Source: a virus (taxonomy: Duplodnaviria > Caudoviricetes). From it: DNA of 28,667 nt. Under the pieces are notes generated by a model that did not search any database, had not been told where the DNA came from, and saw only the letters and a list, made by a program, of their open reading frames with translations. Position numbers and translations under genes: made by a program. The number at the start of each line of letters is the position of its first letter. The stretch's first letter is position 1. Positions 1-28,667 of the stretch are shown in pieces. The stretch is from the IMG/VR virus record IMGVR_UViG_3300037991_001232, positions 1 through 28,667 of that record, one strand, 5' to 3'.

Positions 1-128
1 TGAAAGAAATGAAACAGATTGTTGAAGAATACGAAAAATAAGACATGGCAAAATTAGTTTTACCAGTAAGCGTCGAAACAATTGCAACAAGACATGATGG
101 TTCTGTCAAGATTGTGATGGGAACATAT
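1..128. repeat. Terminal direct repeat, left copy (circular overlap)
   Basis: 1-128 matches 28540-28667 except C/T at 71 vs 28610 and 74 vs 28613; ORFs run continuously across the junction. Confidence 0.95.
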
Positions 129-419
129 GAACTGAACACACAATCAGCAGTCAAATTGTTTGATTTAAGAAAGTCAGAAGCATTGATGTATCTTTCAAGT
201 GATAATATATCACAAGAAGAATTGGATGCTTTAGATGGCTTTAAATTAGATGCAGAAAAGACAGATGGAAAAACACCATCCCAAAGATTGAGAGCAGTTC
301 TCTATGTTTATTGGAAACAACACAAGCAAAAAGACATTGAATTTGACATCTTCTATTTAAAATACATGAATAGAACTATTGACAGAATCAAAGATAAACT
401 TGATGCAGAAACATACTAA
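45..419 (+). CDS. Hypothetical phage protein
   Basis: 124-aa ORF with ATG 3 nt after the upstream stop; contains a KTPSQRLRAVLY helix motif; function not recognised. Confidence 0.75.
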   Translation: MAKLVLPVSVETIATRHDGSVKIVMGTYELNTQSAVKLFDLRKSEALMYLSSDNISQEELDALDGFKLDAEKTDGKTPSQRLRAVLYVYWKQHKQKDIEFDIFYLKYMNRTIDRIKDKLDAETY

Positions 420-660
420 AATATATTTGAATTATTTTGATGCATTGTTTGGTGAATTTGTTCCTTGTGAAATGTGTGGAAAAGAAGCAGTGGATATTCA
501 TCACATTGAACCAAGACAAGCTGGTGGTTCAAAACTTAAAGACACTATTGATAATCTTATGGCATTGTGTAGAAAATGTCATTTGAAGTATGGTGATAAA
601 AAACAATATAAACAATTACTAAAAGAAAGGCACAATGAAAGACTTCAATCCAGACAATGA
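403..660 (+). CDS. HNH endonuclease (terminase-associated type)
   Basis: CEMC...DIHHIEPRQAGG...NLMALCRKCH (CxxC-HH-N-CxxCH); upstream of terS; ATG 403 preferred to TTG 379. Confidence 0.9.
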   Translation: MQKHTKIYLNYFDALFGEFVPCEMCGKEAVDIHHIEPRQAGGSKLKDTIDNLMALCRKCHLKYGDKKQYKQLLKERHNERLQSRQ

Positions 661-982
661 AAAGCATATGGAAATTGTTCAAGAAACAGAACAAGCTATT
701 AAAGAAGAAGCAGAAAAGCAAGTTGAAAAAGAATATCCAAGACTTGAAAATGGACAAGTGGATTTCATGACAATAATTTCACAAATGTTTGAAGGACAAA
801 TTGGTGTTGTTAACTATGTGCAAGGAATTTGCAAAGGTTATGCACTTGATATGTCTTTAAAGACTGCAAACAATCTAATGTCTGAACTTGACAATGGAAA
901 AACTAAACTGACTATGGATGATATTATTCCAGAAGAAATAAAACCAAGTCATGAGAAAGTGACACAAAATGACATAAAGTAA
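635..982 (+). CDS. Hypothetical protein
   Basis: 115-aa acidic ORF overlapping the HNH end, genome-typical codon usage. Confidence 0.75.
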   Translation: MKDFNPDNEKHMEIVQETEQAIKEEAEKQVEKEYPRLENGQVDFMTIISQMFEGQIGVVNYVQGICKGYALDMSLKTANNLMSELDNGKTKLTMDDIIPEEIKPSHEKVTQNDIK

Positions 983-987
983 TAATT

Positions 988-1062
988 ATGATATACATAT
1001 TTTTATTAGTACCAATTTTGATTGCAACCATTGTTGCTTACTACAAACTATTTGAAGAATAA
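988..1062 (+). CDS. Putative 24-aa single-pass membrane peptide (not in ORF track)
   Basis: ATG988-TAA1062 encodes MIYIFLLVPILIATIVAYYKLFEE and fills the gap between ORF 635-982 and terS. Confidence 0.5.
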   Translation: MIYIFLLVPILIATIVAYYKLFEE

Positions 1063-1064
1063 AA

Positions 1065-1352
1065 ATGCCATTTGAAAAAGGAAATCAACTTGCTGGTTCA
1101 AGAAAGGGTGTTCCAAACAAAACAACTGCTGAAATCAGAAATGCTTTTCAGATGCTTGTTGAAGACAACCTTGACAACATGAAAGTGTGGTTGTCTGATG
1201 TGGCAGCAGAAGACCCAGAAAGAGCATTGGAAATAATATTGAAGATGTCTGAATATATTGTTCCAAAGCTATCAAGAACAGAAGTCAAAGCAGACATCAC
1301 TGATAAATCAATTGTCATAAACTTAAACAGATTAAATGCCAAAGACAATTGA
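1065..1352 (+). CDS. terS: Terminase small subunit
   Basis: N-terminal MPFEKGN...SRKGVPNKTT motif typical of terS; overlaps terL start. Confidence 0.8.
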   Translation: MPFEKGNQLAGSRKGVPNKTTAEIRNAFQMLVEDNLDNMKVWLSDVAAEDPERALEIILKMSEYIVPKLSRTEVKADITDKSIVINLNRLNAKDN

Positions 1353-2652
1353 CATTGATTTGTTTGATAAACAAGCAGACTGTTTTGCTTATCTTGAAGA
1401 TAAGGTCACCACAGAAATATTGTTTGGGGGTGGTGCTGGTGGTTCAAAAACATTCACTGGTTGTCTATGGCAAATACACAGAAGACTTCAATATCCACAA
1501 ACAAGAAGTGTGATTGGAAGAAGTAAGTTGAAGAATTTAAAAGCAACAACACTAAACACATTCTTTGAAGTTGCACAAGACTTTGTTGGTCTTAAACCAA
1601 ATGAAGATTTTACATACAATGCACAAGAATCAACAATCACATTCTTTAATGGCTCAATCATATATTTGAAAGACTTGTTCTTATATCCATCAGACCCAGA
1701 CTTCACATCACTTGGTGGACTTGAAATCACAGATGCATTTGTTGATGAATGTGCAGAAGTATCACACAAGGCAATCAACATATTGAATTCAAGAATTAGA
1801 TTCAAGCTGGACAAGTTTGGTTTGATTCCAAAAACATTGATGACATGCAATCCAACAAAGTCATGGTTGTATTCTGAATTTTATAAACCATCTAAAGAAA
1901 ACAGATTGCCAGAACACAGACAATTCATTCAGTCACTTGTATCTGACAACACTGCAATTTCAGAACACTATGTCAAGCAACTTGAAAAGCTGGACAAGGT
2001 GTCAAGACAAAGACTTCTTCTTGGTGACTGGGAATACAATGAAGATGATGCACTTTTATTTGATTATGATTCAATTCATGATATGTTCACAAACAATGTT
2101 GAAGGTGGTATGAAACACATTACTTGTGATGTTGCAAGATTCGGTGCAGATAAAACCATCATCATTCTTTGGAATGGTCTAAATGCTGAAAAGATAGTTG
2201 CAAAGAATCAGTCATCAGTGACAGAAACAATTGATGCAATAAAACAAATGTCACATGAAAATAGTGTGCAAAGGTCACATATAATTGTTGATGAAGATGG
2301 TGTTGGTGGTGGTGTCAAAGATGGTCTGTCTGGTTGCAAAGGATTTGTCAATGGAAGTAAAGCACTAAAGTCAGAAAACTTTCAGAACCTAAAGACACAA
2401 TGTTTTTTTAAACTTGCAGAAATGGTCAACACTGGCAAGATTGCAATCAAAGACACCAGACACAAACAGACAATCATTGAAGAACTTGAAATCATTAAAA
2501 GAGATAAAATTGACAAAGACACACAGAAACTTGCTATCATACCAAAGGACACAATCAAATCATTGCTTGGAAGGTCACCAGACTTTGCAGATGCTTTGAT
2601 GATGCGAATGTGGTATGAAGTAAAAGGAAATTATGGTGTGTATGCTTTTTGA
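1336..2652 (+). CDS. terL: Terminase large subunit
   Basis: Walker A GGGAGGSKT, Walker B AFVDE, motif III TCNP, RNase H-like nuclease with CDVARFGADKT and SPDFADAL. Confidence 0.95.
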   Translation: MPKTIDIDLFDKQADCFAYLEDKVTTEILFGGGAGGSKTFTGCLWQIHRRLQYPQTRSVIGRSKLKNLKATTLNTFFEVAQDFVGLKPNEDFTYNAQESTITFFNGSIIYLKDLFLYPSDPDFTSLGGLEITDAFVDECAEVSHKAINILNSRIRFKLDKFGLIPKTLMTCNPTKSWLYSEFYKPSKENRLPEHRQFIQSLVSDNTAISEHYVKQLEKLDKVSRQRLLLGDWEYNEDDALLFDYDSIHDMFTNNVEGGMKHITCDVARFGADKTIIILWNGLNAEKIVAKNQSSVTETIDAIKQMSHENSVQRSHIIVDEDGVGGGVKDGLSGCKGFVNGSKALKSENFQNLKTQCFFKLAEMVNTGKIAIKDTRHKQTIIEELEIIKRDKIDKDTQKLAIIPKDTIKSLLGRSPDFADALMMRMWYEVKGNYGVYAF

Positions 2653-2687
2653 AAGGAAATTCACTAAAAACAACCTTTAAACTATTG
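2651..2687 (+). promoter_or_regulatory. Putative late promoter, copy 1
   Basis: GAAAGGAAA(2651-2659)-N15-CTTTAAACTATTG(2675-2687); same boxes and spacing at 13629-13665. Confidence 0.65.
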
Positions 2688-2689
2688 AA

Positions 2690-3262
2690 ATGAAGAAAAC
2701 TTTTGAAATATCAATTCCAACAGAATGGGAAGATGTAAGCATTGAAAAGTTTGTGAAATATTCACAAGCAGTCAATCATTTAGAGGATGACAAAGAAATT
2801 GTTGTCAAGACAATCAGCACATTGTGTTCAATTGCTGAAGAAGTGGTTGAAGTGATGAAAATGAAAGATTTGCAAAAGATTCAAACTACTCTGCAAAAGC
2901 TAATCAGCAAACCAATCAACAAAGAAATCATCAACAAAATTAACATTGAAGGAACAGTGTATGGATTTCATCCAAAACTTGATGAAATGACAATGGGTGA
3001 ATTTGTAGATGTTGAAACTTATGCAAAAGAAAATGACTTTGCTGGAATGATGTCTGTTCTTTACAGACCAATAATTCAAACACAAGGCAACAGATATAAT
3101 ATTGAACCATATGACACTGATGTCCATTATTCAAATTCTCAAAAGTTTAAAAAATTATCAATCAATGTAGGAAATGCAATTGCAGTTTTTTTTTGGGATT
3201 TAGGGAAAACACAACTTCAGCATTTCCAACAGTATTCAAAAAAGGTGGAAAAAGAAGTGTAG
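2690..3262 (+). CDS. Tail assembly chaperone, short (G-like) form
   Basis: 190-aa ORF with IPTEWEDVSI and MTMGEFVDVE motifs; slippery T9 run near its 3' end. Confidence 0.65.
   Translation: MKKTFEISIPTEWEDVSIEKFVKYSQAVNHLEDDKEIVVKTISTLCSIAEEVVEVMKMKDLQKIQTTLQKLISKPINKEIINKINIEGTVYGFHPKLDEMTMGEFVDVETYAKENDFAGMMSVLYRPIIQTQGNRYNIEPYDTDVHYSNSQKFKKLSINVGNAIAVFFWDLGKTQLQHFQQYSKKVEKEV
3186..3194 (+). promoter_or_regulatory. Programmed -1 frameshift slippery site (T TTT TTT)
   Basis: GTT TTT TTT TGG in frame 0; the -1 frame reads TTG GGA TTT AGG... and stays open to 3435. Confidence 0.75.
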
Positions 3263-3435
3263 GAAGCAACTATGGTTGGTTCAATGTAATTGATAACCTT
3301 GCATCTGGTGATTTGTTAAAGTTTGATAGCATCACAAAATTGCCATTGAATTTATGTTTGACAAAGATGTCATTGGATGCTGACAAGATGATTGAAAGAA
3401 ACAAAGAGTTGAAAAAGAAACAAAATCAAAGATGA
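3193..3435 (+). CDS. C-terminal extension of frameshifted chaperone (GT-like fusion 2690-3435, ~248 aa)
   Basis: -1 frame relative to 2690; no early ATG; NYGWFNVIDNLASGDLLKFDSIT motif; its stop overlaps the next ATG (ATGA). Confidence 0.7.
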   Translation: MGFRENTTSAFPTVFKKGGKRSVGSNYGWFNVIDNLASGDLLKFDSITKLPLNLCLTKMSLDADKMIERNKELKKKQNQR

Positions 3436-4637
3436 TTACATACAGAGGAATTATAGCATATTTTGATGCAATATGTGACAGACATCAACAGATTCAATCA
3501 TTTACATATGGTGAAATTGATTTGTTTGACAAGGATAAGTTTACCAAATATCCAGCTTTACACTTGACACCAACTGGAACTGCTATTGACAACCAAACAA
3601 TTGTATATGGTTTTGATGTGGTAGTGTTTGACAGATATGATGTTTCATCCAATAAGATGCGACATGAAGCAAATTGTTTGTCTGATTCATTGCTTATTCT
3701 TCAAGATATATGCAAAGAACTGACTGATGGAAAGTATTTCATAAATGAAGACACTAATATTTCAATGGATGTGCCAGTGGTATGTCAGCCATTTATTGAC
3801 ACTGAACCAGACAATTGTTCTGGTTGGACTACAACATTTAATGTAATCACACCAAATGAATCAAGTGCATGTTCTATTCCATATTATAATTCTGAAATAT
3901 GGAATCATAAAACTGCAACATTGCCATCTGGAACACCATCATCATATGCATGGTATTCAATGCTAAACACTGCAAACATTTTTGCATATAGTGGAAATGA
4001 AGTTTCTTCAGTTGCACCTTATCAAGATACTCTTGCTGGAAGTGACACACTGACTTTGACTGGTCAATCACTTACATTTGATAAAATTAAAAATGGTTTA
4101 TTTTTTAATGACCCATCAGTGAACACAGAATGCTATCTTGAACATCAAGGATTGACTGGTTCTGAATATACTTTCTTTATTAAAATAAAAGACTTTTCAA
4201 GATTTGGTGCAGATGCATTTTCACAAAGTTTGTTGACTTTTGAAAATAGTGCTGGAACAACTGATGTCATACTTAATATTTCAAATCAAAGTGGAAAACT
4301 TGCATTGCAAAATGCATTGACAAGTCTTTCTGAATTTCCTATCTGTCCAACAAATGGAACAAACATTGACACTGCACACAGAAGAATGCAACCTTTAACA
4401 TTAGCAATTAAATTTGATGCTGCTGCAACATTTATTGAATGTTATTACACAAATGATGCTCTGGAACAAATGAAAGTGACAACATCTGGTTTTGATTTAA
4501 ATGGTGGTAAATTTTACATTGGTTCAAAAGGGGTGACAAGATTTTGCAATTTCTACATGTCTGAATTCTTTTTTACAGATAGTGCAATGAATGATGCAGA
4601 TATATTGACAACAATAGAATGGTTGAATTATAGATGA
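3432..4637 (+). CDS. Putative tail terminator/completion protein fused to a C-terminal LamG/ConA-like domain
   Basis: First ~150 aa (KYPALHL, LSDSLLILQDI, CQPF...SGWTTTF...CSIP) resemble tail-terminator proteins; the last ~230 aa are beta-rich and end FYIG...SEFFFTDSAMNDADI. Confidence 0.55.
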   Translation: MITYRGIIAYFDAICDRHQQIQSFTYGEIDLFDKDKFTKYPALHLTPTGTAIDNQTIVYGFDVVVFDRYDVSSNKMRHEANCLSDSLLILQDICKELTDGKYFINEDTNISMDVPVVCQPFIDTEPDNCSGWTTTFNVITPNESSACSIPYYNSEIWNHKTATLPSGTPSSYAWYSMLNTANIFAYSGNEVSSVAPYQDTLAGSDTLTLTGQSLTFDKIKNGLFFNDPSVNTECYLEHQGLTGSEYTFFIKIKDFSRFGADAFSQSLLTFENSAGTTDVILNISNQSGKLALQNALTSLSEFPICPTNGTNIDTAHRRMQPLTLAIKFDAAATFIECYYTNDALEQMKVTTSGFDLNGGKFYIGSKGVTRFCNFYMSEFFFTDSAMNDADILTTIEWLNYR

Positions 4638-5212
4638 TAGGAACTACTAAACAACAGATGAACAAACTTGGTGCAAGGGTTGTCAAGTTAGCACAAATCA
4701 ATCTTGGTGCATCACAAACAATTGATGGCAAGAAGCGTGTGACTGATAACACTGGTGCATTAAGAAGTTCACTTGGTTACAGAATAAAACAAAACAGAAC
4801 TTCAAGTGGTCAATTCAGTTCTGGTTTTAAACTTGAACTTACTTCATCTGTTGATTATGCATCTTTTATTGAACAAGGTGTTCAAGGTTCAGAAAGCACA
4901 AAACCAAGTGCAAAAAAATCACCATTCAGATTCAAGTCAAGAAATCTTCCACAAGGTGTCATGGCTGGATGGATTGAAAGCAAACCAATTAAACTGCGTG
5001 AAATGGGAACTGGAAAGTTTTCAAAGAACACTGATGTTGCAAAAAAACAACTTGCATTTGTTCTTGGTAGAGCAGTTGCAACCAAAGGTATTTCAGCAGT
5101 CAATTACTTTGCTGATGCAGTTGAACAAGCAGTGCCAAAAGAAGGTGGTGAAGTAGCAGTTGCAATGGCACTTGATTGGATAAACGAATCATTAAAAAAA
5201 GGACTAAAATAA
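4634..5212 (+). CDS. Neck/tail completion protein (HK97 gp10-like)
   Basis: Basic protein with TGALRSSL, DYASFIEQG and KGISAVNYFADA motifs. Confidence 0.7.
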   Translation: MIGTTKQQMNKLGARVVKLAQINLGASQTIDGKKRVTDNTGALRSSLGYRIKQNRTSSGQFSSGFKLELTSSVDYASFIEQGVQGSESTKPSAKKSPFRFKSRNLPQGVMAGWIESKPIKLREMGTGKFSKNTDVAKKQLAFVLGRAVATKGISAVNYFADAVEQAVPKEGGEVAVAMALDWINESLKKGLK

Positions 5213-6771
5213 TGGCAATCACAACAGTTACAATAAATGATGACAATTTTATTTCATCCACTGGTGAAAACATGGCTTATATTGAAAGCAACAATGTTGT
5301 AAATTATAATTTAAGATTTTTGTGTGAAATCACATATTATACAGATTATTATTCATCTTCTGGTGGACAGAAAACAATTAAATTTGTTCAGCAACCAACA
5401 CAACAAGTTGGAATATACAGTTCAGCAGTTTTCAATTTGACTGAAATCATCAATTCAATAGTGACACCACAAATCAGTTCTTCAAATTTAGCAAATCCAC
5501 CAGACCCTTCAGCAATAGTTCCAACTGAATTATATAATATTCATGCACTTCCATCATATAAAGGAAATGCTGGTGTACAAGTTTTTTCAAATGGGATGTT
5601 GATGGGAACGGCAGTAATTGGATATGAAGACATCAGAGGTGTATCAAATGTGATGAATTGCAATTTTTATGAAATGTATTCACTTACTGAAGAAGGAATG
5701 CCAACAAAAGACCAGTCAACACAAGTATCAAAAAGACTTTATGTTTTCAAAGGTAGAGGTCAATCAGATTATGGTGCATTGCCAGATTTAAAAAACATAT
5801 ATGGACAATACAGTGATGGTTCAACAAAGCCAGTTTTAACATCAAACTACAATCCAACTGGTGGTGGTGACTTTGATTATGAAATAAATATTGGAAAGGA
5901 TGAATTCCACACCATGTCTTTTTTTGGTCGGTGTAACATAACACCAGCAACAGTTGCAGAAGCGTTTCAAATAAAATATTACAAAGCATCTGATGACTAT
6001 TATCTTGGACAATTAACATGCACAATGAATCTTGGGGCTGGTGCAAAATACTGGGAAAATTATATTGACAATATATATCCAGATTTTTATCGGATTTGTG
6101 GAGTTGGTTTTGAAAATCTTAACAGATTAGACCCTGACCCATTAGACCCATCTGAAGCATATTATGGAAATAAACCATCAGCATTTGAAGGCTGGATTCC
6201 AATAAGTGGTATGTATTATACATTCCAGCTTGGAAGTCTTGCACCAGTCACACATGCTTTTACTGGTTGTTCTGCATTGTACAAATTCAATATTGTATCA
6301 TATTGTGACAAATATGAACACATCCGACTTGCTTATATGAACAAGTTTGGTGCATGGGAATATATCACTTTGAACAAAAAGAAAGAAGAAACATTGAAGG
6401 TTGAAAGAGATTACATCACAAAACCTTTATTGAATCAAGCATTTTATCCAAGATTTACAACTGGTTTTGATGTTCCAGATGAATATATAAATGCAGCATA
6501 TCCTTTAAATGTTGCGAAGCGTGGAAAGATGACAACAGAAGTCAGACCAACAGAACATTTGACATTGTTTACAGATAACTTAAAACCTTATGAAATTGAA
6601 CAAATAAAAGACATGATGATGTCACCAGAAATTCATGATGTGACAACAATTAATGCTCAATCATTAATTTTGGAAAACACTGAAATGAAATTGAAAGGTT
6701 CAAAAAATACTGGGTTGTATGAATATGAATTAAAATTCAGTTATGCAAATCCAAAAAACAGAAAGTGGTAA
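5212..6771 (+). CDS. Virion tail structural protein (distal tail/baseplate-like)
   Basis: ATG5212 overlaps the upstream TAA; C-terminal RLAYMNKFGAWEY...MMSPEI...YELKFSYA; precedes the large tail protein. Confidence 0.6.
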   Translation: MAITTVTINDDNFISSTGENMAYIESNNVVNYNLRFLCEITYYTDYYSSSGGQKTIKFVQQPTQQVGIYSSAVFNLTEIINSIVTPQISSSNLANPPDPSAIVPTELYNIHALPSYKGNAGVQVFSNGMLMGTAVIGYEDIRGVSNVMNCNFYEMYSLTEEGMPTKDQSTQVSKRLYVFKGRGQSDYGALPDLKNIYGQYSDGSTKPVLTSNYNPTGGGDFDYEINIGKDEFHTMSFFGRCNITPATVAEAFQIKYYKASDDYYLGQLTCTMNLGAGAKYWENYIDNIYPDFYRICGVGFENLNRLDPDPLDPSEAYYGNKPSAFEGWIPISGMYYTFQLGSLAPVTHAFTGCSALYKFNIVSYCDKYEHIRLAYMNKFGAWEYITLNKKKEETLKVERDYITKPLLNQAFYPRFTTGFDVPDEYINAAYPLNVAKRGKMTTEVRPTEHLTLFTDNLKPYEIEQIKDMMMSPEIHDVTTINAQSLILENTEMKLKGSKNTGLYEYELKFSYANPKNRKW

Positions 6772-6774
6772 ATT

Positions 6775-19696: not shown

Positions 19697-19818
19697 TGGC
19701 TGGAAGAAAAAAAGGTTGCAAAAGCAATCAAGAAAAAAGAGAAATCAACAAGAAATTGTTGGAACTATATTTGAAGAAAAGACATGGAAAACAAAGTGAC
19801 AGAATTAATCGGTTTTAA
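19696..19818 (+). CDS. Small basic hypothetical protein (40 aa, not in ORF track)
   Basis: TAATG overlap with the adaptor stop; MAGRKKGCKSNQEKREINKKLLELYLKKRHGKQSDRINRF. Confidence 0.55.
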   Translation: MAGRKKGCKSNQEKREINKKLLELYLKKRHGKQSDRINRF

Positions 19819-20285: not shown

Positions 20286-20294
20286 AAAAAAGAT

Positions 20295-20453
20295 ATGGAA
20301 TCAAATATGATACTTGAATTAATAGTTGCATTAATGGCTTTCTTGAAAGTTGTTTTCAATTATGTAGAATCAGAAAAAGCAGTCAGAATCTTTGGAAGAA
20401 TTGATGACTTCATTAACTTCTTTGTAAAAGACAAGATTAAATATGAAGAATAA
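20295..20453 (+). CDS. Small membrane protein (52 aa, not in ORF track)
   Basis: MESNMILELIVALMAFLKVVFNYVESEKAVRIFGRIDDFINFFVKDKIKYEE; one TM/amphipathic helix; overlaps next gene. Confidence 0.65.
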   Translation: MESNMILELIVALMAFLKVVFNYVESEKAVRIFGRIDDFINFFVKDKIKYEE

Positions 20454-20673
20454 ATTTCTAAAGAATGCCATTTCTATTCTTCCAGACTTATTAAAAGACA
20501 AGAACAAGAAGTGGTCTGCAAAAAGAACAATCAGTGGTGTGCTGGTCTATGTTGTTGCTGATTATCTGCAACACCATGATTTGTCATGGATGGTTGTTGC
20601 ATTCACTTTGGTTTCAGTTTCACCATTGTGTTTGTCTTTTTTTGAAACGAATTGTAAACCTTGTAAAAAATAA
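20443..20673 (+). CDS. Small two-TM membrane protein (holin-like)
   Basis: KWSAKRTISGVLVYVVA...WMVVAFTLVSVSPLCLSFFE; two hydrophobic segments; within lysis cluster. Confidence 0.6.
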   Translation: MKNKFLKNAISILPDLLKDKNKKWSAKRTISGVLVYVVADYLQHHDLSWMVVAFTLVSVSPLCLSFFETNCKPCKK

Positions 20674-20676
20674 AAA

Positions 20677-20949
20677 ATGGCATTAACAGATAGAGAGAAA
20701 AAAATATTTCGCAAAAGTGGTGTAAAAGGAATGATTGCTGAATCAATCACAAAGTCAGATTCACAAAATTTATCACTTAATTCTGCAAATTTATATATTG
20801 GAACTGGTGGTGATTTAAAGATTGACACTGCTGATGGTGACACTATCACATTAAAAAACATTGCAAGTGGAACATATATTGACTTTATAAAAGTTAAAAA
20901 AGTTTATTCCAAAGGAACAACTGCAAGTGATATTGTTGCAATCTATTAA
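20677..20949 (+). CDS. Capsid spike base protein (RcGTA Rcc01079-like)
   Basis: LYIGTGGDLKI...GDTITLKNIASGT...VKKVYSKGTTASDIVAIY matches the Rcc01079-family pattern as I recall it. Confidence 0.75.
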   Translation: MALTDREKKIFRKSGVKGMIAESITKSDSQNLSLNSANLYIGTGGDLKIDTADGDTITLKNIASGTYIDFIKVKKVYSKGTTASDIVAIY

Positions 20950-22154
20950 TGCAATTCAGACCAAGATGGTCTGATTCAATTAGACCATACATACAAGAAT
21001 TCAGAAAACTTCCAAAAAGTCAACAACTGCACTTGCTCAAAACAATGTTGCAGTCAGACAAGATTGAAACTTCTGAAAATAAAAAGCATTTAAACATTGT
21101 ATCAAAGTCAAGTTCAAGAATTAAAACACTTGAACAACTTCTTCATGTTGCTGAAGTTGACTTGGAAAAATACCATGTTGACAAATATAATGTCAACAAA
21201 TGGGAAGTATCTGCTCAAATAGATGGACACATGGTGACTGAAGAACTATTTCAAGTCAAAGCATCACTTGTCAAAAATAAGGCTTTACAGATACGCAAAA
21301 GAATTATTGATGAACTACATCAAGACTTCAAGAATCATTCACCTAAAGCCATAAAAAGGACACACACTGGTGGCAATTACATGCTTGAAGTCAACATCTT
21401 TGATTTGCACTTTGGAAAGTTGTGTTGGAATGGTGAAACTGGTGAAGATTATGACACCAAGATTGCATCAAAAAGATTCCATTCTGCAATTGATGACTTG
21501 ATTCAAAAAGCATCAGTGTACAATATCAGCAAAATACTGTTTCCAATTGGAAATGATTTCTTCAATTCAGACAATCACAAGAACACAACAACAAATTTGA
21601 CACCACAAGATGAAGACTTGCGTTGGATGAAGACATTTAGAAATGGAAGAAAGCTGATTGTTGAAGGCATTGAAAAGTTGATGCAAGTTGCAGATGTTGA
21701 TGTTGTTATTGTGCAAGGAAATCATGACTTTGAAAGGTCATATTATCTTGGTGATTCACTTGATGCATGGTTCAGAAACAATCACAATGTGACAATCAAC
21801 AATGATGCAACACCAAGAAAGTATGTGAAGTATGGTCAGAACTTAATTGGTTTGACACATGGAAACAATGAAAAGATTGCAGAACTTCCATTGCTTATGG
21901 CATCAGAAAAGAAGAAGATGTGGTCAGAAACAAAGTTTCATGAATGGCATCTTGGACATCTGCATCACAAAAAGCAATTTCAGTTTCAATCAGTAGCTGA
22001 ACAAAAAGGTTGCACCATCAGATATATGAGAAGTTTGTCTGGCACTGATGCATGGCACAATCTAAAAGGCTATGTTCAGAATGTACAATCAGCAGAATCA
22101 TTCATCTGGCACAAGACTGATGGTCTTGTCTGTCATCAATTCTTTAATCTATGA
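20949..22154 (+). CDS. Calcineurin-like metallophosphoesterase
   Basis: All five motifs: DLH, GNDFFNSD, GNHD, THG, GHLHH; ~140-aa N-terminal extension. Confidence 0.85.
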   Translation: MQFRPRWSDSIRPYIQEFRKLPKSQQLHLLKTMLQSDKIETSENKKHLNIVSKSSSRIKTLEQLLHVAEVDLEKYHVDKYNVNKWEVSAQIDGHMVTEELFQVKASLVKNKALQIRKRIIDELHQDFKNHSPKAIKRTHTGGNYMLEVNIFDLHFGKLCWNGETGEDYDTKIASKRFHSAIDDLIQKASVYNISKILFPIGNDFFNSDNHKNTTTNLTPQDEDLRWMKTFRNGRKLIVEGIEKLMQVADVDVVIVQGNHDFERSYYLGDSLDAWFRNNHNVTINNDATPRKYVKYGQNLIGLTHGNNEKIAELPLLMASEKKKMWSETKFHEWHLGHLHHKKQFQFQSVAEQKGCTIRYMRSLSGTDAWHNLKGYVQNVQSAESFIWHKTDGLVCHQFFNL

Positions 22155-22303
22155 ACATAGAAATTGCACTTGCTATATTTAAAGGTCTTGCAATAGGCAT
22201 TAGACACTTTGACCCAGTAGAATATGCACCTTATTATGAAGTGCAAATTTACTTTCTTATGTTCAGACTTGACATCTTTTTCATTCCTACATCTGAAGAA
22301 TAA
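22151..22303 (+). CDS. Small hypothetical protein (50 aa, not in ORF track)
   Basis: ATGA overlap with the phosphoesterase stop; MNIEIALAIFKGLAIGIRHFDPVEYAPYYEVQIYFLMFRLDIFFIPTSEE. Confidence 0.6.
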   Translation: MNIEIALAIFKGLAIGIRHFDPVEYAPYYEVQIYFLMFRLDIFFIPTSEE

Positions 22304-22306
22304 CAA

Positions 22307-22382
22307 GTGATTAAGACTAATCACAAAAAATACTTATGCATTTCATTGTTTAAGTATTTGTACAATTAAAAACAATTTGTAC
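22307..22382. repeat. Three consecutive inverted repeats in the main intergenic region
   Basis: GTGATTA-N4-TAATCAC (22307-22324); AAATACTTA-N14-TAAGTATTT (22328-22359); GTACAA-N11-TTGTAC (22360-22382). Confidence 0.65.
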
Positions 22383-22387
22383 TTTTG
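22357..22387 (+). promoter_or_regulatory. Bacteroidota housekeeping-sigma (-33/-7) early promoter
   Basis: TTTG (22357-22360), 19-nt spacer, TACTTTTG (22380-22387) = TAnnTTTG; ~30 nt upstream of ATG 22417 with an AT-rich leader. Confidence 0.8.
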
Positions 22388-22416
22388 TAAATATTAATCA
22401 ATTAAATAAATTTAAA

Positions 22417-22785
22417 ATGGACTATCAAAAAGAATTACACAATTCAGTTGTCAGATTGTATGAAGACAAGGCAAGGGAATGTGAAAGACTTGAAGGTGAA
22501 TTGAAAAGAGAAAGAAATCTGACAAGACAACTTGAAGAATTGGTTGAATTATATTCATCACTTGCAAAGTATGGTGCAATTTATGTCAATTCATATCAAC
22601 AAGATTGTGATGGTGTTGAATCTTATTCAACCTATGTCTTCAAAACTATTGAAGAACACAATGAAGCAGAAAATCTTTTTTCTGAATCTGTTGAAGGTGC
22701 ATGTTCATGGAAGGTTGTTGCACCAGAAGATGCAAGACCAGAAGAAGAATGTGGAACATTTGGTCAAGGATGGGGAATCAATTAA
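22417..22785 (+). CDS. Early hypothetical protein with N-terminal coiled coil
   Basis: First ORF after the host-type promoter; A-rich translation initiation region. Confidence 0.75.
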   Translation: MDYQKELHNSVVRLYEDKARECERLEGELKRERNLTRQLEELVELYSSLAKYGAIYVNSYQQDCDGVESYSTYVFKTIEEHNEAENLFSESVEGACSWKVVAPEDARPEEECGTFGQGWGIN

Positions 22786-22795
22786 TCTTTGTACT

Positions 22796-22960
22796 ATGTT
22801 TAAAAACTGCTTAATCAAACAAGTGCTGAAACAAGCACACTGCAAGAAGGTATCTTTGGAAGTTGTCCAAAGGTATCTTCTTTTGTATTATAATATAAAC
22901 ACATCAATGTTTGTTTTGAGAAAAAGAAAGACAATGATGACTATAATGAATCAATTATGA
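22796..22960 (+). CDS. Small basic hypothetical protein (54 aa)
   Basis: 3' part of track ORF 22532-22960; ATG 22796 follows the upstream stop; ATGA overlap downstream. Confidence 0.55.
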   Translation: MFKNCLIKQVLKQAHCKKVSLEVVQRYLLLYYNINTSMFVLRKRKTMMTIMNQL

Positions 22961-23223
22961 TTGAAGGAAAGACACACAAAGAAAGACTGCTGAACTATCT
23001 TATTGAATATGGTTCAATCACAAGTCTTGAATCAATTCGTGATTTGGGAAACACCAGATTGTCTGCAACAATATTTCAATTAAGGGAAGAAGGTCACTGC
23101 ATACCAACAGAAATGACCAGTGTTGCAACCAGATGGGTTGACCAAGATGGAAACAGAAAGAAGACTTCTGTTGCCAAATACACTTTAATTCGTGAAAATG
23201 TACAACTTGAAATTCCTATATAA
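22957..23223 (+). CDS. Winged helix-turn-helix DNA-binding protein (HTH_39-like)
   Basis: RLLNYL..GSITSLESIRDLGNTRLSATIFQLREEGHCI pattern. Confidence 0.8.
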   Translation: MIEGKTHKERLLNYLIEYGSITSLESIRDLGNTRLSATIFQLREEGHCIPTEMTSVATRWVDQDGNRKKTSVAKYTLIRENVQLEIPI

Positions 23224-23495
23224 TGAAATTAAGATTAAACAAAAGTCAGCGTGTTGAAAGATGTGACACACAAAAAGCATATGCAATCCAGTTTTCAAAA
23301 TATGGTGATTCAATGTTGTTCTTGTCCAAGAAGTACACAAGAATAAAAGAAGACATCATTGAAAAAGATGGTCTTTACTTTACAACTGAATATCATGTTG
23401 AATTTCCACAATGGATTTATGAATACATGGATGACAATCAAAAAGGAACAATTAAACTTATTCAAGAACAATGGAAGCAAGAACACAATTCTTAA
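23223..23495 (+). CDS. Hypothetical protein
   Basis: 90 aa, TAATG overlap; TQKAY...FLSK...FPQWI beta-rich pattern. Confidence 0.7.
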   Translation: MKLRLNKSQRVERCDTQKAYAIQFSKYGDSMLFLSKKYTRIKEDIIEKDGLYFTTEYHVEFPQWIYEYMDDNQKGTIKLIQEQWKQEHNS

Positions 23496-23722
23496 TGCGA
23501 ATGCAAATGATGATTAATGAAATCAAAGCAAGTGGATTTGGTGATGAACATATTCAAAAGATGCTTGACTTTCAGTTGTCATGTAGGGAAAAAGAACTTG
23601 TCAAAGAAGTCAAAAGAAAAGTTGTTGGTGCAATTGAAATGAAAAACAATAGGGGTGTGACTGCAACTTATATTGTTGCAAAAACCAATGACAAGTTTCT
23701 TGACATCATTGATGATATGTAA
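23471..23722 (+). CDS. Hypothetical protein
   Basis: 83-aa ORF overlapping the upstream gene. Confidence 0.65.
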   Translation: MEARTQFLMRMQMMINEIKASGFGDEHIQKMLDFQLSCREKELVKEVKRKVVGAIEMKNNRGVTATYIVAKTNDKFLDIIDDM

Positions 23723-23765
23723 AATTTATTTAACTATATTGCACAATAATTTAAACAACTAAACA

Positions 23766-23975
23766 ATGAATTTATTATCTAAACTAAAGCCAGAATACAA
23801 AGTGGTTCTGGTTGAAAGGATGGAAGAATATCCATCAACAAAAGAATCAATTTTTAAATCACTTACTGAAAAAGAATTTGTTCTTCATTTAACTATCAAA
23901 GAAGCTGGTGATATTACTTGGTATTTAAGTGACCAACCATTTGGTCATATTTATAAACTTTTTAAAGAAGAATAA
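23766..23975 (+). CDS. Hypothetical protein
   Basis: 69 aa after a 43-nt AT-rich gap with A-rich initiation region. Confidence 0.7.
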   Translation: MNLLSKLKPEYKVVLVERMEEYPSTKESIFKSLTEKEFVLHLTIKEAGDITWYLSDQPFGHIYKLFKEE

Positions 23976-23976
23976 G

Positions 23977-24252
23977 ATGTCAAGACTATTTGAAAAATTT
24001 ATTGAAGAAGTGTTTGGAAGCAATCCACATCTTCATGCAGAAGCAAAAAGAATTGAAGCTGAATCAAAAGAATCACAATGGTATGATGCAAGACAAAAAT
24101 GCAATCCATTAGACAACACTATTGAAGAATGGAATGCACTTGGTAAACCAAATAAAAAGAATCAAACTTTGAAATGTGATTCATTGAATCATATCTTTGG
24201 AAATCCAGTTGAAGAATTGGATGAATTAATTAATCAAACATTTAATAAATAA
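23977..24252 (+). CDS. Hypothetical protein
   Basis: ATG 23977, 1 nt after the upstream stop, preferred to the track start at 23929. Confidence 0.65.
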   Translation: MSRLFEKFIEEVFGSNPHLHAEAKRIEAESKESQWYDARQKCNPLDNTIEEWNALGKPNKKNQTLKCDSLNHIFGNPVEELDELINQTFNK

Positions 24253-24255
24253 ATT

Positions 24256-24798
24256 ATGGAAATCAAAAAAGGAATTGTCAAAAGTGTTCAATCAAATGGA
24301 AACTTGAAACTTCAACATGGAATGTTTTACAAATTTGAAATTGAAATTGGTGAAGATGTTGGTGAATATTTGTCAAAATCAGAAGATGGTGGAAACAAGA
24401 ATTTTCCAGTTGGTCAAGAAAAGGAATATCAACTGACTGAAACTTCTTATGGTAAAAAAATCAAACCACACTTTCAGCAAAAGTCATTCACACCAAGACA
24501 AGCATTTGGTGAAAATCCAGACAGACAGAAGATGATTGTGAAGCAATCTTCATTGAAGGTGGCATCAGACTTGTGTATTGCAAACAACAATACAGACTTA
24601 AATTCTGTTTTTAATATGGCTGATAAAATTGTTGCATGGGTTATGGATGACAAACCAGTTCAACATGCTGAATTAAGAACTGGCATTGAAACAAAGTCAG
24701 TGACAAGAACACAAGCAAAAAAAGACATTGCAAATGAAATGGAAAATTTTGCTGAACAAAGTGGTCAAACAATGCATCCAGAAGACTTGCCATTCTAA
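24256..24798 (+). CDS. Putative single-stranded DNA-binding protein
   Basis: Beta-rich OB-like N-terminus and acidic C-terminal tip EDLPF typical of SSBs; in the replication block. Confidence 0.6.
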   Translation: MEIKKGIVKSVQSNGNLKLQHGMFYKFEIEIGEDVGEYLSKSEDGGNKNFPVGQEKEYQLTETSYGKKIKPHFQQKSFTPRQAFGENPDRQKMIVKQSSLKVASDLCIANNNTDLNSVFNMADKIVAWVMDDKPVQHAELRTGIETKSVTRTQAKKDIANEMENFAEQSGQTMHPEDLPF

Positions 24799-25004
24799 TG
24801 ACTTGGACACCTAAAAACAAAGCAGAACAATTGTTCAAGAATTTGTTTGAAACAAAATCAAACATGGCAAAAGAACTGAACTTGTCAAGAGTAACACTTG
24901 ACACATATCTTTCTGATGCAAATTTGATGAATTCACAAATCAAAAAAATTGCTAAATTGAAGCAGATTTCTGAACTGAAACTTTTTAAAGCAATAAACAA
25001 TTGA
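24798..25004 (+). CDS. Small Cro/XRE-like HTH protein
   Basis: KSNMAKELNLSRVTLDTYL helix-turn-helix; just upstream of the initiator. Confidence 0.65.
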   Translation: MTWTPKNKAEQLFKNLFETKSNMAKELNLSRVTLDTYLSDANLMNSQIKKIAKLKQISELKLFKAINN

Positions 25005-25006
25005 AA

Positions 25007-25771
25007 ATGGAACATTCTTTTGACATAAATCTTGCAAAAGAAATTGGTCTTGCTGAATCTATTATGATGAAACACTTCATCTTTTGGATTCGTAAAAACA
25101 AAGCCAATGATAAACACTTTCACAAGGGCAGATTCTGGACATACAATTCAGTGTCTGCTTTTGATGAACTTTTTCCATACTTCACAAAAAGTCAAATCAG
25201 AAGAATATTGAAGTCACTTGTTGACAAGAAATACATTATTGAAGACAACTTCAATTCAGCGAAGTATGACAGAACAAAATGGTTTGCAATTGCAGACACA
25301 GAAAGATTTGTTGATTCTGACAAATGGAATTGTTCAAATACACAAATGGATTTGTCAAAACACACAAATGGATTTGCTAAAATAGACAAACCAATACCAG
25401 ATACTAAAAACACAAATACTAAATCAGATGCTAAAGACATATATAAAATGTCTATTGACATTTATCACAAATTCTGTTTGTCAAATTTTGATGCACCAGC
25501 AAAGATTGATGCAATTCAAGGTAAAGCAATGAAGACCATTTTAAGCTATCTGAAGACACTTTGCAAACAAAAAGGTGATGACACACCAGAAAGTGTTTTG
25601 AATGCTTTAAAATACATCTTTAATAACTGGAAGAATCTTGAACCATTTTTGCAGAAGCAAGTGAAATTGTCACAAATAAATTCTAATTTGGTGAATATTA
25701 TTAAACAACTAAAACAAACAACAAAACAAAATGACATTGCAGATGACATCCTTGCCAAGTACAGACAATAA
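25007..25771 (+). CDS. Replication initiator (replisome organiser, lambda O-like architecture)
   Basis: N-terminal wHTH HSFDINLAKEIG...GRFWTYNS...FPYF...YDRTKWF; internal direct repeats; linker; C-terminal helical domain. Confidence 0.8.
   Translation: MEHSFDINLAKEIGLAESIMMKHFIFWIRKNKANDKHFHKGRFWTYNSVSAFDELFPYFTKSQIRRILKSLVDKKYIIEDNFNSAKYDRTKWFAIADTERFVDSDKWNCSNTQMDLSKHTNGFAKIDKPIPDTKNTNTKSDAKDIYKMSIDIYHKFCLSNFDAPAKIDAIQGKAMKTILSYLKTLCKQKGDDTPESVLNALKYIFNNWKNLEPFLQKQVKLSQINSNLVNIIKQLKQTTKQNDIADDILAKYRQ
25299..25390. repeat. Iteron array / putative replication origin
   Basis: CAAATGGAWTTG at 25321, 25343, 25365 (22-bp period), degenerate copies at 25299 and 25387; core CAAAT-GG-ATTTG is palindromic. 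Confidence 0.75.
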
Positions 25772-26249
25772 AATGTTGACACCTATTGAACCAGAATTTA
25801 ATAAACAGATTCTGAAGATGAAGATGAATGACATTGTTTCAATTGCACTTGAAGACAAACCACCATCATTGACAAAGCAGATGAAGATGGAAGAAGAAAA
25901 AACAATTGACATCATCATGTTGTTGTTGATTAAGTTTCAAGACTTTTACAATTGCAAAAGCAAAATGGATAAACACCAACTTGAAGAAACTGCATATTTA
26001 ATCACACAAAAGTTTGGTCATTTTAATTGGTATGATATATCAATGTGTTTAAAACTTGCAAAGATTAATGAAAAAGTATTTGACAGAATTGATGGTGGAA
26101 TGATTCTGGAATGGCTTGTCAGATATGACATCACCAGAACTGGAATGATTGTGACTGAAAGAGAAAAACAACATTCACAATACAATTCAAACTGGTCAAC
26201 ACTATCTGAAAGAAGTTCAGTGCAAAGATTGAAAGATTTTTTGAAATGA
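25731..26249 (+). CDS. Replication-associated protein (possible helicase loader/recruiter)
   Basis: Directly after the initiator (lambda P position); KVFDRIDGGMILEWL motif; true start uncertain. Confidence 0.5.
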   Translation: MTLQMTSLPSTDNKMLTPIEPEFNKQILKMKMNDIVSIALEDKPPSLTKQMKMEEEKTIDIIMLLLIKFQDFYNCKSKMDKHQLEETAYLITQKFGHFNWYDISMCLKLAKINEKVFDRIDGGMILEWLVRYDITRTGMIVTEREKQHSQYNSNWSTLSERSSVQRLKDFLK

Positions 26250-26401
26250 AAAAAGAAAAAAAGATGGTGACCAAATCACTTTGGGAATTGCAATTTGGTA
26301 CAATTGACAATGGTGAATTTTATGTCAAGCATAAAAACTACTACACAGAAAAATCTGTTCCAACATTAAATGGAAAAAAAATATATGCGCAAACAGAATG
26401 A
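26246..26401 (+). CDS. Small hypothetical protein (51 aa, not in ORF track)
   Basis: ATGA overlap; MKKEKKMVTKSLWELQFGTIDNGEFYVKHKNYYTEKSVPTLNGKKIYAQTE. Confidence 0.55.
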   Translation: MKKEKKMVTKSLWELQFGTIDNGEFYVKHKNYYTEKSVPTLNGKKIYAQTE

Positions 26402-26786
26402 ACATGAACTGCAAAAAGCAGTCATTAAATACATGAAACTTCAACATTCATCAATCTTCATCAATGGTTCACTTGGTGGAATATACATCAAGCATCATTC
26501 CCAAAGAAGAAAAGGAAAAGAAGGTGGATTCAGAAAAGGGTTTCCAGATTTGTTCATTTATGAACCAAGAATAATTCAAGGAAGAATCAGACATGGACTT
26601 GCAGTTGAATTGAAAGTCAAAGGAAACTATCCAACTGAAGCACAAAAAACAACACTGAATGAACTATCTAAAAGGGGATTTGAAGCACATGTCTGCACTG
26701 GATTTGACCAAGCTATTGAAACAATAGAATGGTATATCAATTGCACCATTCCAGATGTTGATGTGAACTATACAATCAAAGAATGA
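26370..26786 (+). CDS. VRR-NUC domain nuclease (PD-(D/E)xK; junction-resolving type)
   Basis: EHELQ...GFPDL...VELK...PTEAQK motif; start may be ATG 26385. Confidence 0.9.
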   Translation: MEKKYMRKQNEHELQKAVIKYMKLQHSSIFINGSLGGIYIKHHSQRRKGKEGGFRKGFPDLFIYEPRIIQGRIRHGLAVELKVKGNYPTEAQKTTLNELSKRGFEAHVCTGFDQAIETIEWYINCTIPDVDVNYTIKE

Positions 26787-27652
26787 AAAAAGTCAATTCA
26801 ATATCTGGTGGACAAACATCTGCATATATATCTGCTAATTATCCAGCAGACTTTGATGTGTTTGCATTAGTCAGAACAAATGACAAGTCTTGCTTGTTTC
26901 CAGATAAAAAAATCAGACAGATTGTTTCAGACAAGATTGGACAAGAATTCATTGGAACACTTGAACAAGATGATTGTGTGAAATACATTCTTCAACTTGA
27001 ACAAATGATTGGAAGAAATATCACTTTTGTGACTGGTGAAGCATTTGAAGACATTATCAATCAGAAAAAAAATCAAGGTAAAAATGGAAGTCACTATCTT
27101 CCAAATATGATGACAAGATATTGCACATCTTACTTAAAGATGTTTCCTATTTTTGAATGGTGGTTTCATACAATATCAGAACCAGTTGAAATGCGAATTG
27201 GTTTTAGAGCAAACGAAATGAAAAGAGCAAAGAAAGTCATTGAAAATCTGGATGACAATGGAATGGAATCAATGAAATATGCATTTGAATTTCATAAAAA
27301 TGGAAATAAAAAATGGAAAAACTATACATGGCGAAAACCAACATTTCCATTGATTGATGATGCTATTTACAAAGACCATATTCAAGAATACTGGAATGAC
27401 AAACCAGTGAAATTTTCAAAAGAATACAAAAACAATTGTGTTGGATGTTTTCACAGAAATGAATTGTATTTGAATAAGATGTCAAATGAACATCCAAACA
27501 AAATGAAATGGTTTTCTAAAATGGAAGAATTAAACAAACCAAACACATTCAGAAAGGGTGTGACATATAAAGAAATAATAAATTACAAACCACAGATTGA
27601 AATGTCATTTGATGACTTCAATGAATGTGATTCTGGTTATTGTGGGTTATGA
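26783..27652 (+). CDS. PAPS-reductase-like PP-loop (adenine nucleotide alpha hydrolase) protein with Cys clusters
   Basis: SISGGQTS PP-loop, RYCTSYLK, IGFRANE..RA, NNCVGCF, C-terminal ECDSGYCG. Confidence 0.8.
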   Translation: MKKVNSISGGQTSAYISANYPADFDVFALVRTNDKSCLFPDKKIRQIVSDKIGQEFIGTLEQDDCVKYILQLEQMIGRNITFVTGEAFEDIINQKKNQGKNGSHYLPNMMTRYCTSYLKMFPIFEWWFHTISEPVEMRIGFRANEMKRAKKVIENLDDNGMESMKYAFEFHKNGNKKWKNYTWRKPTFPLIDDAIYKDHIQEYWNDKPVKFSKEYKNNCVGCFHRNELYLNKMSNEHPNKMKWFSKMEELNKPNTFRKGVTYKEIINYKPQIEMSFDDFNECDSGYCGL

Positions 27653-28176
27653 AAAACAAGTGGCATCCAATTGAATGGATATACAAAGACTTTGACTACT
27701 TTCTTGGCTTTGCAATAAAGCAAACCAAAGACAAAGACTTGTCACAAGATTTGGTTCAAGAAACATTCCTTCAATTGATGACCATGAATCAACACAGATT
27801 ACTTATAATCATTGATTCTGGAAAAATAAAAACATATATCTGCAAAATCATGATGGTCAAATACTATTCAGCAAAGTCACAATTCAACAAGAAGATGGTG
27901 CAATATAAAAAGAAGAAGATTCAAAGTGATGAATCATTTCTTGAACATCTGGCAAATATAAATTCACCAGAACATCATCAAGAAACATTGAATGAAATGA
28001 ATGAAAAGATTGATGATTGCTTGACACACTTTGATGAATATGACAGAAAGTTGTTTCAACTATACTATGAAACTGGGTTGTCTGTCAGACAACTATCTGA
28101 AGAAACTGGAATCAGCTTTAAATCTATTCAGTACACAATTAATAAAGTAAAAAAGAACATCAAAGATTTAATATGA
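27649..28176 (+). CDS. Phage-encoded ECF-type sigma-70 factor
   Basis: Region 2 (SQDLVQETFLQL...KTYICKIM) and region 4 HTH (DRKLFQLYYETGLSVRQLSEETGISFKSI); ATG 27649 in an ATGA overlap. Confidence 0.85.
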   Translation: MKNKWHPIEWIYKDFDYFLGFAIKQTKDKDLSQDLVQETFLQLMTMNQHRLLIIIDSGKIKTYICKIMMVKYYSAKSQFNKKMVQYKKKKIQSDESFLEHLANINSPEHHQETLNEMNEKIDDCLTHFDEYDRKLFQLYYETGLSVRQLSEETGISFKSIQYTINKVKKNIKDLI

Positions 28177-28580
28177 TACCATTTAAAGCTGATAAAAAAC
28201 TTGCACAAAAAAGAATTGCAATATGTGAAGAATGTGAATACTTCAAACCAAAAACAAGAACATGTGGAACTGCAATAATTGGTGACAAGATTGGTGACAA
28301 AAAAACATGTGGTTGTTTTATGGATGCAAAAACAAAATTGTCATTCAGCAGATGTCCATTTGACAAGTGGGAATTTCTTCAAGTCACTGAAAATGATTAC
28401 CTTGCAATCAAGAAATTGTTGGATGAAGTTGACAACACTATCAATCCAAAACAGAAAGAAGTGTTGTTTGAAATGCAAAGAAAATACATTGGTGGAAATA
28501 CAAAGACATCCAATTGTGTTCCATGCATAAAATCAGCACTGAAAGAAATGAAACAGATTGTTGAAGAATACGAAAAATAA
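28173..28580 (+). CDS. Cys-rich putative zinc-binding protein
   Basis: RIAICEECEYF...TCG...CGCFMDAKTKL...CPFDKW plus C-terminal CVPC; its 3' end is duplicated at 1-41. Confidence 0.7.
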   Translation: MIPFKADKKLAQKRIAICEECEYFKPKTRTCGTAIIGDKIGDKKTCGCFMDAKTKLSFSRCPFDKWEFLQVTENDYLAIKKLLDEVDNTINPKQKEVLFEMQRKYIGGNTKTSNCVPCIKSALKEMKQIVEEYEK

Positions 28581-28667
28581 GACATGGCAAAATTAGTTTT
28601 ACCAGTAAGTGTTGAAACAATTGCAACAAGACATGATGGTTCTGTCAAGATTGTGATGGGAACATAT
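28540..28667. repeat. Terminal direct repeat, right copy
   Basis: Matches 1-128 with 2 mismatches; contains the 5' start (ATG 28584) of the gene at 45-419. Confidence 0.95.

Follow-up and report, generated by a model that had tools for sequence, protein, structure and literature searches.

The stretch of DNA analysed here (the window) is the complete 28,667-nt virus record IMGVR_UViG_3300037991_001232, the 28.5-kb genome of a tailed phage whose 42 genes all lie on the + strand. About 86% of the trinucleotide GAG and its complement CTC have been removed from both strands of this genome through synonymous codon choice. The purge is real, selected and clade-wide, and it is a form of restriction-site avoidance. 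Furthermore, T tends to be lacking 7-10 nt after the A of the surviving GAG sites, as in the adenine-to-T spacing of Type I restriction-modification systems, a feature that is new here. We lean towards the explanation that GAG is probably an N6-methyladenine (m6A) half-site common to many host restriction-modification specificities, chiefly bipartite Type I.

On the + strand, GAG occurs 53 times and CTC 14 times, against 383 and 177 expected from base composition, close to the approximately 50 and 15 sites estimated by eye in a first-pass annotation of the sequence. Under a maximal-order Markov model applied to both strands, GAG/CTC was the most depleted trinucleotide (67 sites vs 484 expected; z = -22.6). 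As a codon-level null, we used 300 amino-acid-preserving shuffles of the 42 genes, which keep the proteins and the codon usage. Junction-spanning sites numbered 41 versus 154 for GAG and 12 versus 115 for CTC, under the lowest shuffle in each frame, so that the avoidance across codon boundaries and on both strands claimed in the annotation was borne out. This null is conservative, because codon usage itself is already purged: Glu is encoded 655 times by GAA and 9 times by GAG, and only 2 of the 687 Leu codons are CTC. The tetranucleotide GGAG occurs on the coding strand 5 times versus 74 in the shuffles.

Arg codons depend on their neighbours. Following Met (n = 11) or Trp (n = 3), CGN is used in 11 of 14 pairs versus 14 of 209 in neutral contexts (p = 1e-9); 9 of the 11 Met-Arg pairs are ATG-CGN and 2 of the 3 Trp-Arg pairs TGG-CGA, exactly as first annotated. 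The pairs are located as follows:

2602, 3657, 11771, 15200, 15676, 18362, 20067, 23495, 26385, 27191 and 27329 (range 2602..27334), + strand: ATG-CGN or TGG-CGA pairs
8749, 17123 and 22026, + strand: exceptions among the Met-Arg and Trp-Arg pairs

Preceding a G-initial codon, AGA accounts for 29 of 53 Arg codons versus 179 of 209 (p = 4e-6), and all eight AGG GAA positions cited in support of this effect are in frame. The costly AGA-to-CGN swaps are confined to places where AGA would create GAG. The related proposal, that an otherwise avoided CpG is accepted to escape GAG, stands in part: CpG is at 0.09 of expectation and the swaps are real, but the CpG of ATG-CGN lies in the most tolerated CpG context (49/268 for GCG versus 37/532 for ACG and 11/268 for CCG, with GCG partly raised by the ATG-CGN codons themselves).

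The surviving sites are spread along the genome (2-16 per 3-kb bin; largest gap 2.9 kb), which rules out a local or first-injected purge. They occupy all four GAGN contexts and three of the four NGAG contexts (AGAG, GGAG and TGAG; CGAG is absent with the CpG loss), which rules out a single contiguous 4-5-mer target. The short asymmetric GAG-containing target originally envisaged is therefore not one contiguous motif, with the most informative context 7-10 nt downstream, but it may still describe a context-free layer of the loss.

The spread of the trait was assessed in relatives gathered with the following gene as the query:

1336..2652, + strand: terminase large subunit

The close clade comprises 39 loci, 35 found by terminase (78-98% identity) and 4 by capsid, with L024 and L042 belonging to one contig. 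GAG is at 0.07-0.34 of composition in 39/39 of these loci, and this loss persists throughout while GATC, CAGG and ACAGC differ between subclades, from purged to abundant. In one subclade (L021-L023, L025 and L026), GATC, CAGG and ACAGC stand at 1.3-2.8, yet GAG, CpG and TA are low, a possible sign of a host shift. Among 135 more distant loci, GAG fell below 0.35 only in L037 (0.32) and L048 (0.03), and the nearest outgroup, L104 (terminase 69%), has GAG at 0.90. None of twenty 20-kb pieces of Flavobacteriales chromosomes showed GAG loss (0.82-1.18), and the alternative of a bias shared with a host chromosome was thus not seen in the order sampled. L048, a distant locus (terminase 51%) inside a bacterial bin, carries a stronger signature (GAG 0.03, CpG 0.10, TA 0.21); the chromosome pieces in the bins of L048 and L046 do not share the signature of their phage contigs. 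Other triplet biases occur among terminase relatives (L110, L138, L169 and L174; L087, L090, L094, L096 and L097): either GAG is enriched about 2-fold with low CpG (three of these loci also have low GAC), or, in loci taken from bacterial genome records, GAC drops to 0.28-0.38.

To characterize the context of surviving GAG, we pooled 951 sites from the window and 17 loci. At distances 7, 8, 9 and 10 from the A, T occurred at 0.72, 0.75, 0.69 and 0.82 of frame-matched distal levels. This deficit (the T hole) was not present at distances 5-6 or 13-14, no comparable run was seen for AAG, CAG, GAA, GAC or GAT in the pooled sites, and GAG ranked first for it among the tested triplets with at least 100 sites. 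The hole is present on both strands and lies below 1 in 39/39 clade loci (0.33-0.91), versus 0.89-1.08 in the 20 chromosome pieces. Surviving GAG is also followed by a G hole at distance 8, and GAG-N5-GG stands at 13/37. To exclude protein-level effects, the analysis was restricted to the 15,575 distinct contexts in which the protein is the same with or without GAG (GAG present in 908; Leu class left out). Optional GAG was kept 1.68 times more often without T at 7-10, in 31 of the 33 gene families with at least five GAG each (p = 1e-7), and six control windows gave 0.81-1.22, none significant. When cross-validated by gene family, positions +7 to +13 were the most informative flank, with small gains upstream and at +3 to +6. 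Taken by itself, the window has no T at 7-10 in 28 of its 67 sites, against a background of 27.6% (p = 0.009).

The HsdS subunit of Type I systems reads two half-sites of 3-4 bp, with the target adenines 6-9 bp apart, and its domains reassort to yield new specificities. For families ID, IC/IE, IA and IB, the spacing between target adenines is 6, 7, 8 and 9 bp, respectively, and three of the listed enzymes begin with GAG (PMC12707154, Table 1). Six to nine base pairs between adenines correspond to a T at distance 7-10 from the A, which matches the GAG hole exactly; the purge also acts on both strands and in any reading frame, as would a Type I system. We envisage that the host population joins a GAG-reading domain to many partner domains and spacers. 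Nearly any GAG would then be a target in some strain, and giving up the half-site itself, wherever synonymous codons permit, would be the cheap escape. The leftover context-free loss might come from many one-sided Type IIG and III systems acting on the same G-m6A-G core, which is the weakest step of this scheme.

Published methylation data offer candidate half-sites. By raw string counts in table S4 of PMC4752239, in which six half-sites were counted on both sides of the spacer, spacer-flanking halves include GCA (31), GAG (29), CAG (24), CCA (23), AAG (20) and GAA (11), and "gag" appears 68 times overall, many of them in Type IIG and III motifs (60 of the 68 rows viewed). The same table attributes GAG-N6-RTGC to Polaribacter and up to four Type I systems to marine flavobacteria, rich in TA-, AAG- and GAG-containing halves. 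Most complete marine restriction-modification systems are reported to be of Type I or III (PMC9516812). HsdS domains are present in 153 of 401 Flavobacteriales genomes, a count of domain presence, as specificities are not readable from sequence. In several known enzymes, GAG is paired with a T 7-10 nt or a G 8 nt away from its A, matching the depleted positions here: EcoAI, EcoEI and StyLT7III/StySB (PMC12707154), M.Psp88ORFHP of Polaribacter (PMC4752239, table S4), BceNI and Apa12260I, which carry N4-methylcytosine (m4C) and m6A (PMC5100572), and Mme2I (PMC12455610). The m4C/m6A Type I sites CCC-N5-CTC, GCC-N5-CTCC and GCC-N6-TCC (PMC5100572) have a layout that, for the first two, is mirrored by the loss of GAG-N5-GG and by a shortage of T 8 nt after the middle C of GCC and CCC (window, 0.70 and 0.69; window pooled with 15 loci, 0.68 and 0.60; chromosomes, 1.00). 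Unlike for the known enzymes, no single partner half-site dominates here, all four family spacings are covered by the hole, and the depletion extends to T-free GAG. In the case of Mme2I, a GAG-containing Type I site matters only in early-injected DNA (PMC12455610), whereas the loss here is genome-wide.

Parallel bipartite purges accompany the GAG hole:

1..28667: AAG-N6-CTT, 0 of 35 expected; GAAG-N6-TA, 0/16; GAA-N7-TA, 17/74
1..28667: TA-N8-T, 615/894; TA-N7-T, 708/916

The dinucleotide TA shows a T hole at 8-9 nt, with 2983/3618 over 7-10 in the window. NNT-A junctions are kept at 0.49 in partner-free versus 0.27 in doubly partnered contexts. GC-N7-GC is also scarce (window and 15 loci pooled, 80 vs 508 expected; window only, 38/79), and is purged unevenly within the clade.

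The combination of purge and hole recurs in two independent phages. In Pseudomonas phage 73 (PA73), GAG stands at 28/1432, with T at 7-10 in 4/26, and in Burkholderia phage KL1 at 29/1449, with T at 7-10 in 8/24. Thus, PA73 and KL1 resemble the window clade in their near-total GAG/CTC purge and in the same T hole, but differ in host phylum, in being 54% GC and CpG-rich, in the purge of T-bearing CAG and in keeping GAG mainly in Shine-Dalgarno-like sites; conversely, holes after TA, GCC and CCC are a property of the window clade. Among the Shine-Dalgarno-like survivors, the GGAG-to-ATG distance is 11 in 12/14 cases (PA73) and 13/15 cases (KL1), never 7-10, whereas 8/19 fall at 7-10 in Flavobacterium phage 11b; a natural spacing preference could contribute. 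GAGC is wholly absent from PA73. The CAG hole in PA73 is equally sharp (194/744; T-free 1.47, T-bearing 0.14), and CAG in PA73 and KL1 (L184/L185) looks like a clean Type I half-site (T-free 1.1-1.5, T-bearing 0.14-0.19).

Statistical support for the Type I half-site layer is good, although no enzyme is linked to it. Several observations weigh against assigning it the whole purge. The spacing effect accounts for only 1.7- to 2.5-fold of a 7-fold loss, and a half-site without the partner T is not harmless: T-free GAG is reduced to 0.24 of expectation (window), 0.36 (pool) and 0.07 (PA73 and KL1 together). Thus, Type I alone cannot explain the purge. In the safest contexts, Glu GAG is kept at ~0.06-0.07, compared with 0.18-0.32 for Gln CAG and Lys AAG; there, the costly Arg-AGA sites are near neutral (0.71 vs 0.81), while Glu GAG stays at 0.06. 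Moreover, CAG is a pure Type I half-site in PA73, though its strings are comparably frequent in the motif table (134 CAG/CTG, 109 GAG/CTC; PMC4752239), and the sparing of T-free CAG in that phage counts against a generic union of one-sided motifs. As a set, 22 published aquatic-Bacteroidota Type I motifs, none of them from the true host, are not depleted (94/92 in the window, 813/846 in the pool), a few low ones being AAG-N6-CTTC (0/7) and TAA-N5-GTTC (1/5). The T deficit in the window by itself is modest (p = 0.04 and 0.009 in two tests), and the clade loci are related, so that pooled counts are not independent. In the literature, Type I motifs went undetected in pelagic genomes (PMC8919816), and a survey of virulent double-stranded DNA phages reported no avoidance of Type I or IIG sites (PMC6286503).

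The second, context-free layer grows with the first: T-free and T-bearing GAG ratios fall together across groups, from 0.93/0.63 in eight loci of the group with 49-51% terminase identity, through 0.60/0.22 in L037 and 0.36/0.14 in the pool, to 0.24/0.11 in the window. It has two serious candidates, many one-sided GAG-core Type IIG/III systems, weakened by the CAG control, and a true triplet reader. Base-adjacent effects exist (GAGAC 4/52; the small cross-validated gains upstream and at +3 to +6), and AT-rich contexts are not spared. Should a defence reading the trinucleotide GAG/CTC itself cause most of the purge, Type I would be a second layer only; we regard this as a tentative but genuine contender, for which type 4 bacteriophage exclusion (BREX), with its NCTC phosphorothioation, is the nearest described system and a new reader is equally possible. 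Such a reader would account for the low level of T-free GAG throughout (in L048, it is 0.05) alongside the untouched T-free CAG of PA73, for the constancy of the loss in 39 clade loci while GATC, CAGG and ACAGC switch between subclades, and for AT-rich upstream contexts being no safer than average. The BREX type 4 of Bacteroides salyersiae is likewise a Bacteroidota system with an asymmetric, partially modified and effectively CTC/GAG target: modification reaches 17% at CCTC, 4% at TCTC and 0.2% at ACTC, with GCTC not reported (PMC12914056). Class-adjusted GAG survival by next base (C 1.34, T 1.03, A 0.89, G 0.86) is the inverse of this preference order. However, the match is not robust: GAGG (CCTC) comes out in excess among survivors (1.7-1.9) when they are normalised differently, PA73 lacks any GAGC, and GCTC is at 0.17 of expectation, though the BREX preference would spare it. 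GAGC/GCTC is another reported phosphorothioate motif (PMC11931770). Furthermore, the motifs modified in a second BREX-4 strain are GAAG and GACG, motif-dependent phage restriction is putative (both PMC12914056), the SspB/BrxP marker DUF4007 occurs in only 12/401 Flavobacteriales genomes, and BREX predicts no T hole. In the weakly depleted phage group (T-free 0.93, T-bearing 0.63), the Type I pattern appears without the second layer. It is also conceivable, though on balance doubtful, that an unnamed widespread defence reading bare GAG/CTC, besides Type I half-site purging, drove the same purge independently in Bacteroidota, Pseudomonas and Burkholderia phages.

Explanations outside restriction fare worse. 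DarT2-type ADP-ribosylation of single-stranded phage DNA could select against its thymine motif, and a lesion-density effect would produce a soft, two-strand avoidance; TCTC, a proven substrate of the enteropathogenic Escherichia coli DarT2 (PMC13368585), is indeed depleted here (0.16). The motif given there is TYTN, however, and ACTC is no substrate, whereas in the window TTTC (1.53), TCTG (2.28) and TCTT (1.78) are abundant and ACTC is at 0.08, so that only a CTC-specific homolog, of which none is described, would fit, and we consider this cause very improbable. Mutation pressure, for example deamination of modified cytosine in CTC, might deplete GAG/CTC with no selection involved, and methylation may have acted on CpG in this way. 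The over-representation of AAG/CTT and GAA/TTC, the 64 G-to-A changes among 116 single-base differences at relatives' GAG sites, the two CpG/TpG differences between the terminal repeats and the C5-methyltransferase-like proteins in five relative loci would agree with it. Yet AGA-to-CGN replacement after Met or Trp requires a transversion into the rare CpG, 42 of the 116 differences fall at the central A, and mutation leaves the T hole at 7-10 nt unexplained; in addition, L037 combines GAG at 0.27 with CpG at 1.27, so that the two losses are separable. This rival is already largely refuted, and we give it little credence. Least probable of all are translation-level causes (tRNA supply, internal Shine-Dalgarno-like GGAG or an mRNA nuclease site), to which the scarcity of coding-strand GGAG and the near-exclusive use of GAA for Glu might point, but which are contradicted by the two-strand pattern: coding-strand CTC is more depleted than GAG (12/115 vs 41/154), out-of-frame sites are affected, the T hole lies on both strands, and PA73 and KL1 keep GAG mainly in Shine-Dalgarno sites. 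Accordingly, the early claim of selection at the DNA level rather than tRNA bias holds, given the action on both strands and in all frames, the AGA-to-CGN swaps, the central-A replacements in relatives and the unbiased chromosomes.

GAG is not the sole avoided word, although it is the most depleted trinucleotide. CpG (0.09), TA (0.44), GATC and CTAG (0 each), CAGG/CCTG (2 vs 67) and several 6-bp palindromes are also lacking, and GAG is thus part of a heavy motif purge:

1..28667: contiguous words at 0 are GATC, CTAG, ACGT, CCGG, GGCC, CGCG, AAGCTT, CTGCAG, GATATC, GTGCAC and GAGAC
1..28667: contiguous words nearly gone are CAGG/CCTG (2) and ACAGC/GCTGT (1)

Across the whole window, CA/TG stands at 1.7 alongside the low CpG and TA. 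Avoidance of CCA, as for Ssp-type systems, was not seen in the window, where CCA is enriched.

Methyltransferase cargo is variable in the relatives and comprises C5 cytosine and N6/N4 types, which fits restriction pressure; two of the five loci with a C5-methyltransferase-like protein were scanned. The cargo genes are located at:

L004:3059-4300, L011:2464-3681, L008:7398-8036, L009:4508-5131, L021:48-671 and L032:6093-7232: C5 or N6/N4 methyltransferases, with L032 an ATPase-GNAT acetyltransferase fusion

The genome of the window encodes terminase, portal, head protease, tail proteins, an M15 endolysin, a replication initiator, a VRR-NUC nuclease, a sigma-like factor and a PAPS-reductase-family protein. 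Other features are:

28540..28667, + strand: 128-bp terminal repeat of positions 1-128, indicating a circular or terminally redundant assembly
26783..27652, + strand: PAPS-reductase-family (SspD-like) gene (phrog_424; SspD E = 2e-9)

The repeat copies differ at positions 71 and 74, the left copy having CpG and the right copy TpG at both. The PAPS-reductase-family gene is variable cargo, carried by 4 of the 24 relative loci that span the site, which rules out a tie between the GAG trait and this gene. A PHROG match to "DNA methyltransferase" at 12848-13648 overlaps the head protease domain and was not accepted as a methylase. Searches of the 42 proteins with PHROGs and Pfam, and of 15 with PADLOC, revealed no recognisable anti-restriction gene. 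Among named phages, the terminase matches best in Flavobacterium phage 11b (46%) and then in Cellulophaga phage phi10:1 (45%), the match of the putative capsid protein to Nonlabens phage P12024 is weak, and the majority of 58 terminase matches in genome collections are Bacteroidota records (best 55%). Gene starts are A-rich and without Shine-Dalgarno motifs, and 92% of sampled window words are present in one marine metagenome study other than the possible source. A DNA search of 401 Flavobacteriales genomes for the host gave short or low-identity matches only. Judging from these similarities, the host is probably a member of the Bacteroidota. Similar elements, AACTAT(A)TTTGAAGAA, at 1046-1064 and 19763-19783 stand ahead of the genes at 1065 and 19784 and may resemble a Bacteroidota promoter element.

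No publication describing the purging of GAG across a genome, or an A-to-T spacing signature, was found, most subscription papers lying outside the search; the accessible sections of PMC10644984 and PMC13340088 contain nothing on GAG purging. The loss described here resembles that in the virulent phages of PMC6286503 in that host restriction targets are removed synonymously from both strands (the window also lacks GATC, CTAG and AAGCTT), but differs in that the survey saw no Type I or IIG avoidance, whereas here the half-site is purged and the Type I spacing is visible. The ratio used in that survey is normalised by all subsites, and a preprint that found asymmetric sites to be not uniformly avoided (bioRxiv 10.64898/2026.09.23.753747) describes a correction for triplet frequencies. 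Such sub-word or triplet corrections would probably mask much of the loss of a half-site.

Our results suggest that phages can avoid Type I sites by deleting the common half-site, contrary to the conclusion of the largest survey found (PMC6286503). As a read-out of Type I pressure, the A-to-T spacing hole is simple, does not depend on knowing the host and can be applied to any viral contig, and it hints at the half-sites of the host population: GAG, TA-containing, AAG, GCC and CCC. In PA73 and KL1, Type I pressure appears even to fix the spacing of ribosome-binding sites. What is left of the loss, being context-free, points in a precise and testable way to a possible defence that reads three letters.

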